From assembly GCA_030651135.1 (NCBI GenBank), contig JAUSCS010000009.1, positions 22,844-86,843 on the forward strand: DNA of 64,000 nucleotides, in the 5' to 3' direction. Below the pieces are notes generated by a model. That model worked only from the letters and a program-made list of their open reading frames with translations, made no database searches and was not told the DNA's origin. This document shows, piece by piece, positions 55,062 to 60,824 of the stretch (the first letter of the stretch is position 1; every line of letters starts with the position of its first letter). The DNA is from Candidatus Woesearchaeota archaeon (lineage in GTDB: Archaea; Nanobdellota; Nanobdellia; Woesearchaeales; JACPBO01). A program made the translations under genes and the position numbers.

Positions 55062-55214
55062 TGGGCCCAGCCGGACTTGAACCGACGACATTCACCAGTT
55101 TGAACGTTTTACGCTAGTCAAGGCAGCGTCACTCGCTTCGCTCGTTCCGAGCCTCGACTCACTTCGCTACGCTCGTTCGTCAAGGTGACATCATAGCCAC
55201 TAGATCATGAGCCC
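55062..55214 (-). tRNA. tRNA-Val (anticodon GAC) with 80-nt intron after position 37
   Basis: Folded by hand. Acceptor GGGCUCA/UGGGCCC pairs 7/7 (one G-U), discriminator A. D-loop AGUGG. Anticodon stem UCACC/GGUGA, loop UUGACG|U. T-arm GUCGG-UUCAAGU-CCGGC. Exons 55178-55214 and 55062-55097. The intron 55098-55177 is GC-rich, and AACG/CGUU pairing at its ends fits a bulge-helix-bulge. Confidence 0.7.
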
Positions 55215-55924: not shown

Positions 55925-56008
55925 GAGCCTCCGACGAGAGTTGCACTCGCGACCTCCACCTTTTTAGCACGATACCAAGGTGGCGCAATAGCTACTATGC
56001 TACGGAGG
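55925..56008 (-). tRNA. tRNA-Thr (GGU)-like gene with 11-nt intron and atypical T-loop
   Basis: Acceptor GCCUCCG/CGGAGGC is a 7/7 Watson-Crick stem, discriminator U. Anticodon stem CCACC/GGUGG, loop UUGGUA, then intron UCGUGCUAAAA (55961-55971), then A. T-stem GCGAG/CUCGU. The T-loop reads UGCAACU instead of UUCRAAU and the D-loop reads AGUAGC (A in place of G18), so this is possibly a divergent or pseudo-tRNA. Confidence 0.4.
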
Positions 56009-56047
56009 CATAACAGTTGTTTTTTATTTGTTATTTATAAAGTTTGT

Positions 56048-56839: not shown

Positions 56840-57187
56840 CTAGCTCCCATAATACGAGCTTTTCTTATAACCCAGCTTCAATCTCGCATCATCATATGCC
56901 TTATGATCCTCCAAGATTATCTCGATGAAATCTTTGTTTTGCTCTTTGATCAGTACAGCTCTCACATCAGAGGCTATTTTCCTGAAGAACACATACAAAT
57001 GCTTAAATTCCTTCTTTGAAGGGACAGAGCCAAGCTCCTTGTTTTCTTTGCATCTTCTGCACCACTCGATAAGGTCATTTAACATCCCTTCTTTTAATTT
57101 GACAATGTAATCATCAAAATTTTTGTTAAACTTTATTTGGTTTCCAAAGATCTCAAGCAATTTCTGCTTTGCTTTTTTGTCTTCCAT
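56840..57187 (-). CDS. Small helical protein, likely HEPN/DUF86-like partner of the upstream NTase
   Basis: 115 aa. Overlaps the end of the NTase gene 57153-58028 by 35 nt, like the other pairs. Confidence 0.3.
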   Translation of the reverse strand: MEDKKAKQKLLEIFGNQIKFNKNFDDYIVKLKEGMLNDLIEWCRRCKENKELGSVPSKKEFKHLYVFFRKIASDVRAVLIKEQNKDFIEIILEDHKAYDDARLKLGYKKSSYYGS

Positions 57188-58028
57188 AAATCATCTCCTC
57201 GTATGCGTTCTTGAATCTTACTAAATGGCTGTTTGGCTTGATGTTCTTAATCGATTCTTCAAGCGTTTTTATATAAGTATGGACTTCGACGTATAAATAT
57301 GTTTCTGAAAAAATATTTTTGCACAATTCTTTCATAAGCATATCGAGATGCTCTAGTTTGATTTTTGATGATATTTCTTTCAGCTCCCTGCCATTAAGCA
57401 GCCTGTTCCTGCAAAAAAGATTGTAATCGAAGACAAGCCTTCTTACAGACTCCGGCTTTTTTTCTTTCCTCATATGCTCAATTACTGCCTCATGGTATGT
57501 TCCCATCAGCCTTGATAAAGAGGGCTTTTTCTTCTTCGCGTTATTTGGTATCATGAAATTAGATGCTGAAATCAATGAAGCTGACTGAAATACAGGATTG
57601 GTTAATCTTTTCTCTGATAGGAAGATCACGTGCTTATTTTCATCCCATTTTTCCTTGTAGCCCTTTTTTGCAATGATAAAAACATCAATATCATTAAATT
57701 CCTTGGAGAACAAAAAAGAGCCGGCTATGAAGACTTTGTCGTGCTTCTTTGAATAGCCGTCTATGAGCTTCTTGGCTTCCGCTAATCTTGCCGGAATTAT
57801 TTCACTAGATCCACTAACCCAGTATTCTCTGTCCTTTTGTTCCCTTGAAAGCGAGTCGAGTGCTTCCATCTTCTTCTTCACAGATGTGTAAAGCGACTTT
57901 TTCTCGGCATTTGAAAGTCTAAGGCGATTACTGTACTTTTTCAGAACACTGAACTGTTTTTCTGTGAATATCAGAGGAACAAATAGCTCTTCTTTCTCCG
58001 CTACTATTTTTAATATTTTTTCATTCAT
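57153..58028 (-). CDS. Nucleotidyltransferase-domain protein
   Basis: KVFIAGSFLFSKEFNDIDVFIIA matches the GS...DxD motif. Confidence 0.5.
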   Translation of the reverse strand: MNEKILKIVAEKEELFVPLIFTEKQFSVLKKYSNRLRLSNAEKKSLYTSVKKKMEALDSLSREQKDREYWVSGSSEIIPARLAEAKKLIDGYSKKHDKVFIAGSFLFSKEFNDIDVFIIAKKGYKEKWDENKHVIFLSEKRLTNPVFQSASLISASNFMIPNNAKKKKPSLSRLMGTYHEAVIEHMRKEKKPESVRRLVFDYNLFCRNRLLNGRELKEISSKIKLEHLDMLMKELCKNIFSETYLYVEVHTYIKTLEESIKNIKPNSHLVRFKNAYEEMIYGRQKSKAEIA

Positions 58029-58107
58029 ATTACCTTATAAAGTAATACTTATATTTAAATATTTCGATTTTTCATTAAAAATATTAATAATTTTATTAGA
58101 AATGTAA

Positions 58108-58292
58108 TGCGGAGGAAGGGACTCTCAAATCCTGAGGATTTGCTTTTCCTCTGGGATATTCGAACCCTCGGACCCATTCCTTGCCAAGGCAACTCGCATG
58201 CCCAGACTCTAAGGGACAGGATGTCCTAGCTGGTCTTAAGTATCGCACCACATCTGAGTCCTGCGCGTTTGACCAGGCTTCGCTACCTCCGC
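58108..58292 (-). tRNA. tRNA-Leu (anticodon CAG) interrupted by probably three introns (anticodon loop, variable region, T-loop)
   Basis: Acceptor GCGGAGG/CCUCCGC 7/7, discriminator A. D-arm GCGA-AGCCUGGUCAA-ACGC. Anticodon stem CAGGA/UCCUG, loop CUCAGA, with a 30-nt insert before A38. A T-arm reading GAGGG-UUCGAAU-...-CCCUU forms only if a 37-nt insert (AUCCCAGAGG...GAGAGU) is removed. A further roughly 33 nt must leave the variable region to give a class-II Leu arm. Confidence 0.5.
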
Positions 58293-58341
58293 ATAATGCC
58301 TAGTCTTTAAACAGAAATAAGAAAACACTTTATAAAACTTT

Positions 58342-58890
58342 CTAAGCTTCTTCCTTGCAGTCCATGCACATCAGAACGCCGTCAAGATCCGTGACTTTCT
58401 CAGCGTATTTGCCGCATATCTGGCATACGCCTTCTGACGCCTTTCGCTTGCCTAATCGCTTTCTTTCCTCTTCTCTTATTTCGAATTTTTCAACCAGAAG
58501 ATCAAACAATTGCGGCTCTATTTTAAGTACATCTTTTAATGTAAGCAATCCGATGAATTTTTTACCGTAAATAACAGGCAAGTGCCTTATGTTTGAGTCT
58601 CTCATCTTAAGCAAAGCATCAAAAATATCTGCTTCAGGGCTGATTGACACCATATTTATTTCCATATAATCCCCGACTTTCGACTTAGAAGCATCAATGC
58701 CCTTCGCAACAGCTTTTCTGACAATGTCCTGCTCTGTTATTATGCCCTGCAATTCTTCTGCTTTTTTGATCAGCAATGCGCCAACATGCTTCTCAGCCAT
58801 GAGCTTGGCGCAATCCTGCAAACTCATTCCAGAAGTGATTGTAATTGGATTTTCCGTCATTGCATCGCAGACTTTAAAGCCGGTTTTCAT
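58342..58890 (-). CDS. CBS-pair protein with C-terminal zinc ribbon
   Basis: Two CBS motifs (VGALLIKK..., HLPVIYGKKFIGLLTLKDV) and a C-terminal CQICGKY...CMDCKEEA. Confidence 0.55.
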   Translation of the reverse strand: MKTGFKVCDAMTENPITITSGMSLQDCAKLMAEKHVGALLIKKAEELQGIITEQDIVRKAVAKGIDASKSKVGDYMEINMVSISPEADIFDALLKMRDSNIRHLPVIYGKKFIGLLTLKDVLKIEPQLFDLLVEKFEIREEERKRLGKRKASEGVCQICGKYAEKVTDLDGVLMCMDCKEEA

Positions 58891-58901
58891 TTAGTTCACC
58901 T

Positions 58902-60824
58902 TTAATAGTTTACCATAACCTCGACATCCTTGCCGAAAAATGATTTAAGGCTCTCAAATAATGGCTCTTTTATAAACACGCGCGGAGGGATTTTTTCATT
59001 CACAAGTGCTTTTTCCATTTCTTCAATTGAAGACTCTTTTGCTGCGCCCAAGCTGCCGTCTTTGTTTATAATGGCTTTTGTAATTTCCTTCTGCTCAGCA
59101 TCTATGTCATGAATGATAAACGCTTCCTTTTCGAGCAGCAAAACTTCGCCGAACTTTGTTCCGTGTTTCACTCTCACTCTGGCTTTCTCTATTTCCAGGC
59201 CGCGCTTTCTCTGGATGTATTCGATCAGGAACTTTATGAAAGAAGAGGAATCTTTCTTTACCTTTTCAACTTCCACTTTTGTGAGCTTCTTTTCATCATA
59301 ATCTTTTTTTGCCTTTATTATTTCATTCAATATTCTCAAAAATTTTGCAGGAATCTTCCCTTCAGCTATAAGCTTGTCCTCAAACATACTGACAATTTCA
59401 ACATCTGCAACTTTTTCAACGCCCTCTAATTTTAATATGTCCCTTATCATGGTTACAATCGTGTCATAAATGCGGACCATGTCTTCTTCTTCCTTTATCT
59501 TTTCTATCTGGCCGAATAATTTTTTTATTCTTTTAAGGTAATCTTCTGCATTTGTCAGCAGCTCGTCAAGCTCTTTTCCTGTGAGTGATTTTTTTGTTCC
59601 GTGCTCAAGCTCTTTTCTGACCTGGATATTCTTCTCTAAAAGCTTGATGTATTTCTCTTCAAGCATCTTTTCCTTATCAACAAATATTTCCTTCATCAAT
59701 GCAGGAGTTTCCTTAGGAGTTGGAGGCGGTATGCCAAAAAGCATCAGTGCAGCCTGGCTTGGAGTAAGTATTGCATAATAGATGTCTTCCATTCCCAGAT
59801 CCTGCAGCCTGAAATGAACTCGCTTCAGCATTTCTTCGCCTGATGACATGAACATATCAATTGCCTCTGCGCTTGGCTTTATCTTGCCCATTTTCAATAA
59901 TTGCTTCCAGGGCATAAAGATGCCCCTGTCGTAGAATGGAACACCGTCTCTGAGCAATGTGAATATTATTGGGTTTGCCTCTTTCAGGCTGTCCCAGAAA
60001 TCTGTCAGAATGTAAACCTGGATGTTCAGCTTGTTTTTAACCCCGGTTATATCGCCTGCTTCAATTCCCATGCCGATTATTATCGCCCTTAATTTGTCTT
60101 TCAATTCTGCCCTTGTCATCCGCTTGACATCTGTGTCATCAATTACAACCCAGACATCAATGTCAGATGTTTTTGTTGCCCTGCCCTGAACTAATGAGCC
60201 TGCCAAAACATAAGAAACAATGTAGCGCTCGAATTTCTTCAGCACCATTGATTTGTGTATTTCGGCTATTTTTATTGCTGAAAGCATTCCAAGATCATAA
60301 ACAGGGGCAGACATTGCAATAAGCTGCAATAAGTCATATTTTGCATCATAGCAGCTCTGCCAAAGCTCCGACAGAATCACTATTTCAGGAGTCAAAGACT
60401 TGTCAACATCCTCGGCCATCTTTGTTATTATTGCAGAAAGCTTTGTTGCCAGCTCCTGCTTTGACATCTTCTGGCTGTCAGAATCATCAACCAATACAAG
60501 AACATTTATTTTTTCTGTACCTTCTTTTTTCTCTTCCTGTTTTTCACTGGTTTTTTCTTTTGGATCAATATATTCTTCTGGCTGCGCCTGAGTAGGTTTT
60601 TCCTCGCCTTTCCTCTGCGGCGGCAGCAATGCGATCCCCATGATATATTTGTCGAACTTTTTAAGAACTTCTTTCTGGAACCTGTCAATCTTTTCCTTTA
60701 TTTCCTTTATCTTTTCCTGGGCTTCTTTTGGGAGATTTTCAGGGATCTTTAATGCCAATTCATTACCTGATTTTTGCTTCTCTTCAGAATTTTTTTTATT
60801 TTCCTTTTCTTCTTTCTTTGCCAT
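58902..60824 (-). CDS. Large (640 aa) protein with two nucleotidyltransferase-like modules and helical domains
   Basis: Lys/Glu-rich N-terminus. A first degenerate NTase (INVLVLVDDSDS). A second clear NTase (AGSLVQGRATKTSDIDVWVVIDD), each followed by helical segments. Confidence 0.4.
   Translation of the reverse strand: MAKKEEKENKKNSEEKQKSGNELALKIPENLPKEAQEKIKEIKEKIDRFQKEVLKKFDKYIMGIALLPPQRKGEEKPTQAQPEEYIDPKEKTSEKQEEKKEGTEKINVLVLVDDSDSQKMSKQELATKLSAIITKMAEDVDKSLTPEIVILSELWQSCYDAKYDLLQLIAMSAPVYDLGMLSAIKIAEIHKSMVLKKFERYIVSYVLAGSLVQGRATKTSDIDVWVVIDDTDVKRMTRAELKDKLRAIIIGMGIEAGDITGVKNKLNIQVYILTDFWDSLKEANPIIFTLLRDGVPFYDRGIFMPWKQLLKMGKIKPSAEAIDMFMSSGEEMLKRVHFRLQDLGMEDIYYAILTPSQAALMLFGIPPPTPKETPALMKEIFVDKEKMLEEKYIKLLEKNIQVRKELEHGTKKSLTGKELDELLTNAEDYLKRIKKLFGQIEKIKEEEDMVRIYDTIVTMIRDILKLEGVEKVADVEIVSMFEDKLIAEGKIPAKFLRILNEIIKAKKDYDEKKLTKVEVEKVKKDSSSFIKFLIEYIQRKRGLEIEKARVRVKHGTKFGEVLLLEKEAFIIHDIDAEQKEITKAIINKDGSLGAAKESSIEEMEKALVNEKIPPRVFIKEPLFESLKSFFGKDVEVMVNY

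Follow-up and report, generated by a model that had tools for sequence, protein, structure and literature searches.

A tRNA-Leu gene with multiple introns and two anticodon loops in a Woesearchaeota-type DPANN archaeon, and its possible alternative splicing in cis

The stretch of DNA analysed here, referred to as the window, comprises 64,000 nucleotides of contig JAUSCS010000009.1 of a Candidatus Woesearchaeota archaeon (assembly GCA_030651135.1), and on its minus strand, at 58108-58292, it carries a genuine tRNA-Leu gene with several introns, which escapes standard detectors. The gene contains two anticodon loops, CAG and UAA, and its splicing may proceed by either of two routes: removal of three introns would give tRNA-Leu(CAG) (the CAG route, or route A), and removal of four introns would give tRNA-Leu(UAA) (the UAA route, or route B). 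ARAGORN in its default mode called no tRNA across the whole 64 kb, and the locus was unmatched by Rfam, run over the whole window, both at the gathering threshold, which returned only 55062-55214, and in the E-value mode, which added 55926-56009. The elements read from the sequence are, in the 5' half, GCGGAGG, UA, the D-arm GCGAAGCCUGGUCAAACGC, G, the anticodon stem strand CAGGA, the loop CUCAGA and a 30-nucleotide (nt) insert, followed in the 3' half by AUCCUG, UCCCUUAG, a 32-nt insert, UGGGUCC, GAGGG-UUCGAA, a 37-nt insert, UCCCUU and CCUCCGC-A. The parts of the gene on both routes are as follows.

58108..58292, minus strand: whole tRNA-Leu gene, 185 nt; G1 is 58292 and the discriminator A73 is 58108; CCA is not encoded.
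58329..58337, minus strand: TATA-box-like UUUUAUAAA, about 37-45 nt upstream of G1, read from the sequence.
58260..58292, minus strand: exon common to both routes, tRNA positions 1-30 (acceptor 5' strand, U8 A9, D-arm, G26, C27-G30).
58262-58265, minus strand: CGCA, the 5' strand of the central helix at 30/31, within the shared first exon.
58253..58259, minus strand: ACUCAGA, that is, A31 and C32-A37 of the CAG loop; exonic in the CAG route, and in the UAA route the opening 7 nt of the 30/31 intron.
58242..58252, minus strand: remainder of the 30/31 intron, with GG (partner in the inner helix h'), UGCG at 58244-58247 (3' strand of the central helix H) and AU of the 3' bulge AU|A.
58235..58241, minus strand: ACUUAAG, that is, A31 and C32-G37 of the UAA loop; micro-exon of the UAA route, which lies within the 30-nt intron of the CAG route.
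58223..58234, minus strand: 12-nt intron at 37/38 in the UAA route; in the CAG route, the last 12 nt of the 30-nt intron.
58223..58252, minus strand: 30-nt intron at 37/38 in the CAG route, spanning the 30/31 remainder, the UAA micro-exon and the 12-nt intron.
58209..58222, minus strand: exon with A38, UCCUG and the first 8 nt of the variable region UCCCUUAG, read from the sequence and relatives.
58177..58208, minus strand: 32-nt intron in the variable-arm loop, H CCUU/AAGG, placed by the cloverleaf junction and the joins in relatives.
58159..58176, minus strand: exon with UGGGUCC (3' half of the variable arm), GAGGG and T-loop positions 54-59, UUCGAA.
58122..58158, minus strand: 37-nt intron at 59/60, H UUCG/UGAG, with the T-stem as h.
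58108..58121, minus strand: last exon, with U60, CCCUU, CCUCCGC and A73.

When the three inserts of the CAG route were excised in silico, an 86-nt product was obtained that ARAGORN called tRNA-Leu(cag), with an ordinary class II cloverleaf. Its acceptor stem GCGGAGG/CCUCCGC is Watson-Crick paired at all seven positions, the anticodon stem is CAGGA/UCCUG, the T-arm is GAGGG-UUCGAAU-CCCUU, and the conserved tRNA nucleotides U8, A14, G18 and G19 in the D-arm, the T-loop UUCGAAU and A73 are all in place. The 15-nt variable region UCCCUUAGUGGGUCC, as in related Leu genes, together with A73 and an anticodon of CAG or UAA, identifies a class II tRNA-Leu. Detection by ARAGORN was lost when the T-loop insert was left in, and the intron mode accepted the 30-nt insert once the other two had been excised. 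An original prediction from the letters alone had proposed a multi-intron tRNA-Leu gene with a perfect 7-bp acceptor stem and discriminator A, to be checked with an archaeal tRNA finder; the ARAGORN-valid product and the relatives described below bear the gene and the stem out, ARAGORN failing on the unspliced locus in its default mode and succeeding on the spliced product. The inserts it placed at 37/38 (30 nt) and 59/60 (37 nt) stand, that in the variable region is 32 nt in length rather than about 33 nt, and the mature length is 86 nt and not 88 nt. The GC content of the gene is 54%, vs 37% for the window, so that it forms a GC island like the two adjacent tRNA genes, and a T-rich trailer is present. 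Relatives carry TTTAAATA at a comparable distance upstream, and UUUUAUAAA is probably the archaeal promoter of the gene, judging from its sequence and position.

Archaeal tRNA introns are delimited by bulge-helix-bulge (BHB) motifs, for which we used the geometry 5'-h-H(4 nt)-bulge(xx|x)-h' ... h'-H(4 nt)-bulge(xx|x)-h-3', in which each 3-nt bulge is cut between its second and third nucleotides. Because a lenient scan of the gene for BHB motifs yielded dozens of chance candidates, only the coincidence of a motif with a junction dictated by the cloverleaf was counted as evidence, and the chance of matching the observed H pairing at these fixed junctions was estimated by shuffling the intron (shuffle P). 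The junctions of the variable-arm intron form a full hBHBh' motif, with H CCUU/AAGG paired at 4/4 positions, bulges AG|A and AA|U, h of 2 bp and h' of 3 bp (P 0.041). For the 59/60 intron, H is UUCG/UGAG (4/4), the bulges are AA|U and AG|U, h is the T-stem, and h' AUCC/GGAU lies behind a 1-nt bulge and is capped by the apical hairpin GAGGA/UCCUC (P 0.037); this layout is an exact parallel of that of the canonical anticodon-loop intron. The 37/38 junction of the CAG route has H CUCA/UAGG, paired at 3/4 positions with a C·A mismatch, bulges GA|U and AC|A, the anticodon stem as h, and h' of 2 bp (P 0.11). In the UAA route, the 30/31 motif is of the HBh' type with H CGCA/UGCG fully Watson-Crick paired (4/4, P 0.013), and the 37/38 motif has H CUUA/UAGG (4/4, P 0.0085). 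Thus, the two routes use one 3' strand for the central helix, UAGG at 58225-58228, and one 3' bulge, AC|A. Every junction therefore coincides with a BHB or relaxed BHB motif, in support of the original prediction, although minimum-energy folds favour neighbouring registers. The T-loop segment alone was significantly stable in energy folding (z = -3.05). Since energy folding neither proves nor disproves the motifs, we relied on the junction-constrained helix tests and on the relatives. By these, the 32-nt intron in the variable-arm loop and the 37-nt intron at 59/60 are unambiguous.

Relatives were collected by a genome scan in which a 23-mer of the D-arm was compared with species-representative genomes, the UAA cassette not being required, and the 23-mer was found to be identical at 77 archaeal loci (related loci are given L numbers). 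In this family, the joins predicted for the window gene occur unbroken: UCCCUUAG+UGGGUCC and GGGUUCGAA+UCCCUU are present in L029, L058, L021 and others, and AUCCUG-UCCCUUAGUGGGUCC-GAGGGUUCAAAUCCCUU is continuous in Woesearchaeota/Nanoarchaeota-type genes such as L029, L058, L021, L049 and L042. The variable-arm join produces UCCCUUAGUGGGUCC, which is the same as the unbroken variable arm of L029, L058 and L087, and the 59/60 join would read GGUUCGAA^UCCCUU in the spliced gene. Two intronless Leu(CAG) genes of Micrarchaeota, L068 and L074, have an identical anticodon arm, CAGGACUCAGAAUCCUG, whose loop region is identical to the ACUCAGA of the window gene. In L090 and L105, position 59/60 holds homologues of the 37-nt intron, with H UUCG/UGAA in the former and UUCA/UGGG in the latter; the central helix stays paired in spite of the base changes, which supports a real gene. 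L108 and L112 have an unrelated intron at this position, with H UUCG/CGAA. For the variable-arm intron, the search for homologues elsewhere gave none, and this intron is so far unique to the window gene. Taken over the family, the introns vary or are absent, the exons are kept, and the BHB helices compensate.

Furthermore, many relatives carry introns at additional sites. An intron at 8/9, about 40 nt upstream of the D-arm, has a central helix that covaries with the acceptor stem (GGGG/CCUU, GAGG/CCUC and GAGG/CCUU) and was found in L082, L086, L089, L099, L102, L104, L108, L112, L091-L093, L103, L114 and L115. D-loop introns are present in L083/L109 and in L105, and a T-stem intron at 51/52 is present in L041, L091 and L096/L106 (H UCCG/CGGA in L041). 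With these added sites, several genes of the family need the removal of four introns. The D-arm sequence is kept across distant archaeal phyla: Nitrososphaera tRNA-Leu(CAA) genes (L007, L009-L011 and many more) have the identical 23-nt D-arm, with introns of ~40-70 nt after CUCAAGA. Among the DPANN-type contigs with multi-intron tRNA-Leu genes, those of L041 (DCWL01000013.1), L021, L042, L045, L049, L058 and L073 belong to metagenome-assembled genomes labelled "Patescibacteria group bacterium UBA2163" or "uncultured Methanosarcinales archaeon", labels that are probably binning or labelling errors.

The original prediction had read the anticodon as CAG. The CAG loop is indeed present, and this reading is incomplete, in that the 30-nt insert holds a perfect second anticodon loop, CUUAAGA (UAA), flanked by its own BHB motifs at 30/31 and 37/38. 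This loop, with the micro-exon ACUUAAG, sits within the 16-nt motif UGCGAnACUUAAGACC, which is found in genes of other genomes and is common to all relatives. Three of these genes, L016, L041 and L045, have no CAG loop, and for these to encode a tRNA, CUUAAGA must serve as the anticodon loop, with an intron removed on either side of it. Throughout the family, the 30/31 intron has H CGCA (positions 25-28)/UGCG with bulges GG|N and AN|A, and the 37/38 intron of the UAA route has as H the CUUA paired with the segment just before xx|AUCCUG. A metagenome scan with the pattern ACGCGCAGG-N(5-35)-TGCGANACTTAAGACC added 34 loci, and the 40 genes that were parsed represent 30 distinct anticodon regions, of which 18 contain both loops (two-loop genes) and 12 contain the UAA loop only (UAA-only genes).

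For the 12 distinct UAA-only genes, maturation is possible solely by the two-intron route. The bodies of their 30/31 introns are unrelated hairpins (for example, GCUA/UAGC, CUCU/AGAG, AAGAGC/GCUCUU and GCC/GGC), and the splice site is fixed at 30/31 by their third bulge nucleotide, which is U, C or A. When 26 distinct sequences were aligned with the register fixed, changes on both sides were seen at 4/4 pairs of the helix h', whose covariation score was 0.394, compared with 0.113 for shuffles (0/500 reached 0.394) and at most 0.097 for slid controls. ARAGORN in its intron mode places spurious introns in UAA-only Leu genes, including L016, L045, L094, L101, L107, L110 and L111, and miscalls them as Arg(cct), Thr(agt), Ser(aga), Pyl(cta) or Ile(aat).

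The two-loop genes show a different pattern of conservation. None of the 18 distinct two-loop genes departs from ACUCAGA, and all 18 have A at position 31, vs U, C or A in the UAA-only genes. The next nucleotide, which is the first of the CAG-route intron, is A, G or U, so that the conservation of ACUCAGA ends exactly at the predicted 5' splice site of the CAG route; the rest of the two-loop intron varies in sequence and in length (9-31 nt). In the UAA route, the CU(C) of ACUCAGA is the 5' strand of the helix h', and the nucleotides before UGCG track this fixed CUC, being GAG, GGG, GG or AG in two-loop genes. The 3' strand of the 37/38 central helix (H3') is UGAG, Watson-Crick to CUCA, in two-loop genes only; UGGG fits both loops, and UAAG or UAGG is perfect for CUUA with one C·A mismatch to CUCA. 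Splicing in silico by either route gave an ARAGORN-valid 86-nt tRNA-Leu for the window gene and for 9 other two-loop genes, and the route-B product of the window gene, tRNA-Leu(taa), is identical at 84/86 positions to the simple Leu(UAA) gene L042. A tree of the common 37/38 intron plus the variable arm does not separate the two-loop genes from the UAA-only genes, which interleave in it. Every insert-bearing CAGGACUCAGA gene in the sequences examined also has the UAA cassette, including 4/4 in the genome scan, which was independent of the cassette; viral contigs scanned for unbiased CAG-loop genes contained none.

The neighbourhood of the gene identifies the host. An adjacent gene encodes a 640-aa nucleotidyltransferase that shares 97% identity with a protein of "Candidatus Woesearchaeota archaeon" (GCA_016180285.1) and 68-75% with the other listed matches, of which those with a named source are from Woesearchaeota or Nanoarchaeota. 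Together with the archaeal gene content of the window, which encodes purine synthesis genes, DnaK/DnaJ/GrpE and archaeal families, these matches indicate that the host is a DPANN archaeon and not a crenarchaeon, contrary to the lineage at which the original prediction had hinted. The nucleotidyltransferase is conserved at ~70% identity across Woesearchaeota, and a comparison of synteny through this widespread protein showed that the tRNA-Leu gene is not syntenic there. At 6484-7185 of L003 (GCA_016180285.1), which corresponds to 58028-58342 of the window, a 233-aa open reading frame (ORF) follows the CBS-domain gene in place of the tRNA-Leu gene. This absence from the syntenic site of the 97% relative suggests that the locus is at a point of recent rearrangement or insertion. 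Four ORFs of the window match Polbeta/NTP_transf_2 domains (for example, 57153-58028 and 58902-60824), and one matches HEPN. The two other tRNA genes of the window, which the original prediction had described as intron-containing, are both real and do contain introns.

55062-55214, minus strand: tRNA-Val(GAC), with an 80-nt intron at 37/38; canonical BHB, H UUGA/UCAA, bulges CG|A and AC|U.
55925-56009, minus strand: tRNA-Thr(GGU), with an 11-nt mini-intron at 37/38; H UUGG/CUAA without h', hence of the bulge-helix-loop type.

Thus, 3/3 of the tRNA genes found in the 64 kb contain introns, and 0/3 were detected by default ARAGORN and 1/3 by Rfam at the gathering threshold. The Val intron contains two copies of an imperfect internal direct repeat, GAACGAGCG(U/A)AGCGA(A)GUGA. 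The tRNA-Thr(GGU) gene, which ARAGORN in its intron mode miscalls as Phe(aaa), has an unusual T-loop, UGCAACU, with G in place of the near-universal U55; the same T-loop is found in the intronless Thr orthologue adjoining the tRNA-Leu gene in L016 and L088.

The reading that we prefer is that one gene gives both Leu(CAG) and Leu(UAA) via alternative BHB splicing in cis, and judging from the sequences compared, we give it a probability of about one half. The splicing endonuclease would recognise each junction as a BHB and cut after the second nucleotide of the 3-nt bulge, and a ligase would join the exons. In route A, the anticodon stem would be stacked on CUCA/UAGG, and the 30-nt intron at 37/38 would be removed with the UAA loop in it, yielding Leu(CAG). 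In route B, CGCA (positions 25-28) would pair with UGCG, and the 18-nt intron at 30/31 that holds the CAG loop would be removed first; CUUA would then pair with the same UAGG, and the 12-nt intron at 37/38 would be removed, yielding Leu(UAA) after four introns in total. The two intron sets overlap and are mutually exclusive. In the full-length precursor, conformer A, which is compatible with the cloverleaf and would present the anticodon stem, H (CUCA/UAGG) and the two bulges, is ~6 kcal/mol more stable than conformer B. The geometry of route A equals that of the UAA route after removal of the 30/31 intron, and therefore an enzyme that cuts the UAA-only genes should also cut by route A. The hairpin of 25-28 with UGCG could form during transcription, at a time when the 3' strand of the anticodon stem has yet to be made, and kinetic partitioning between this hairpin, local to 30/31 and formed early, and conformer A, cloverleaf-like and more stable, may supply both isoacceptors. 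Both UUA (27.5%) and CUG (18.8%) are common among the Leu codons used here.

Several points weigh against this reading. Route B must melt part of the D-stem and of the anticodon stem, at the energetic cost just given, and neither route A nor either outer intron shows a canonical BHB in the minimum-energy folds, alternative registers being close in energy. In the window gene, the central helix of route A carries the C·A mismatch, and h' of the 30/31 helix has only 2 bp. The metagenome pattern required the UAA cassette, so that the conservation of the cassette is unbiased only in the 4 hits from the genome scan and in the window. Splicing of this kind calls for an endonuclease of broad specificity (EndA) and an RtcB-type ligase in the host; in the window, no tRNA_int_endo was among the Pfam families listed for the ORFs in two scans. 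Separate paralogous Leu(CAG) or Leu(UAA) genes may exist, or gene conversion between paralogues may have occurred.

The gene might instead serve Leu(CAG) only, with three introns removed and the inner UGCG-AnA-CUUAAGACC cassette being non-functional and inherited or gene-converted from a UAA-type paralogue. The invariance of ACUCAGA, the greater stability of conformer A, and the fact that every two-loop relative free of further interruptions is called by ARAGORN, in its intron mode, a tRNA-Leu(cag) with a single intron are all as expected from such a gene. We nevertheless consider it unlikely, because the 16-nt motif is kept at 100% inside a hypervariable intron in 5/5 unbiased cases, because the h' partner (GAG, GGG, GG or AG) stays adjoining UGCG while the loop spans 3 to 20 nt, and because H3' is UAGG or UAAG in the window gene and four relatives, which fits CUUA perfectly and mismatches CUCA; moreover, a second paralogue with this D-arm was found in 0/7 of the genomes matched in the genome scan. 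The opposite possibility is that the gene, after removal of four introns, makes Leu(UAA) only, CUCAGA being the 5' strand of the h' hairpin and its likeness to a CAG loop a frozen relic. This would agree with the perfect pairing of both route-B central helices in the window gene, with the obligatory use of route B in 12 sister genes, with the pairing of CUC(AG) to the segment preceding UGCG, and with UUA being the commonest Leu codon. Yet the same hairpin strand varies with compensation in UAA-only genes and never in two-loop genes, and the invariant block includes the unpaired G36 and A37 as well as A31 and stops exactly at the route-A splice site. In addition, a route-A BHB that destroys the precursor should be selected against, but H3' is often UGAG, which is perfect for CUCA, and on these grounds an exclusively UAA output also appears rather doubtful to us. 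That the locus is a decaying pseudogene, or encodes a stable RNA of ~185 nt that resembles tRNA without being one, is by far the least probable explanation, although the unspliced locus escapes every detector used, no homologue of the variable-arm insert was found, and the gene is absent at the syntenic site of the relative with the 97% identical nucleotidyltransferase. The exon segments are all intact and near-identical to those of the relatives, each junction has a matching 4-bp helix with 3-nt bulges, a promoter-like TATA element and a T-rich trailer are present, the GC island is as in the two adjacent tRNAs, and the architecture is common to dozens of relatives.

Other kinds of element were rejected. 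No UGAUGA/CUGA boxes of a C/D-box guide RNA were seen in the introns by eye. A split or tri-split tRNA, whose pieces come from separate loci with a promoter each and meet through complementary leaders and trailers, does not apply, all pieces being collinear within 185 nt behind a single upstream TATA-like element. The tRNA-Leu(UAA) of cyanobacteria and plastids contains at 34/35 a group I intron, a self-splicing ribozyme of >200 nt with a P3-P9 core; the window gene likewise has an intron in the anticodon loop of a predicted tRNA-Leu(UAA), but its inserts are 12-37 nt in length and BHB-flanked, and Rfam returned no group I intron for the region with the limit relaxed to E <= 10.

With respect to its several introns, this DPANN tRNA gene belongs to an already known kind, and the conserved two-loop cassette is the novel part. 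Genes for tRNAs with multiple BHB introns have been found in Thermoproteales and other Crenarchaeota, Nanoarchaeum equitans, Methanopyrus kandleri, Korarchaeum and ARMAN-1/2 (Sugahara et al. 2008, reviewed in PMC4033280 and PMC4090602), and 30/31, 37/38 and 59/60 are all among the published intron sites (PMC4090602). Like these genes, the window gene has short introns, predicted to be spliced by proteins, with BHB or relaxed BHB motifs, and is missed by standard finders. It differs from them in its Woesearchaeota-type DPANN host, in an intron in the loop of the class II variable arm, in the overlapping and exclusive intron sets around two anticodon loops, and in the four introns needed by the UAA route, vs a maximum of three per tRNA gene according to a 2014 review (PMC4033280). 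Disrupted tRNA genes were already reported in the DPANN superphylum, to which the host belongs: Kaneta et al. (2018, PMC5829648) linked variants of the endonuclease EndA with an L3 loop to increased tRNA disruption and to incomplete predicted tRNA sets, included a Woesearchaeota genome and called for manual curation. The available part of that paper is without this gene family, the 30/31 plus 37/38 architecture of Leu(UAA) or a two-anticodon cassette.

Synonymous isoacceptors made from shared body parts are known only for trans-spliced split and tri-split tRNAs (PMC4033280), such as the tRNA-Glu of N. equitans and the tRNA-Gly and tRNA-Ala of Caldivirga maquilingensis, which share halves (Randau 2005, Fujishima 2009, reviewed in PMC4033280). 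The window gene resembles these in its shared body segments with alternative anticodon pieces, in the BHB joins and, as predicted here, in the use of the same endonuclease and ligase. Split tRNAs are joined in trans from separate genes and transcripts, whereas the window gene is one 185-nt unit in which the choice would be made in cis between folds. In the open-access full-text papers and preprints searched, no description of alternative BHB splicing in cis giving two anticodons was found.

If both products are made, the cassette would be a conserved gene-compaction device in Woesearchaeota-type DPANN archaea, represented by at least 18 distinct sequences, and it would explain "missing" Leu(UAA) annotations in these archaea, since pipelines would label two-loop genes as Leu(CAG) and report Leu(UAA) as missing. 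For UAA-only genomes, automated annotation would be wrong as well as incomplete. Because the window gene is recognisable only after three or four introns have been removed, the tRNA inventories of DPANN archaea are systematically incomplete, and this affects the inferences on codon reading and symbiont dependence that have been made from them. If used both ways, the two-loop gene would also parallel, in cis, the split tRNAs with shared halves, and it would be a case of alternative splicing by an archaeal tRNA endonuclease. One transcript of 185 nt and one enzyme would make a simple system for studying how folding kinetics choose between competing BHB motifs. If the gene is used both ways, it would represent a new means of diversifying the tRNA pool, linking intron-containing, multi-intron and shared-half split tRNAs.

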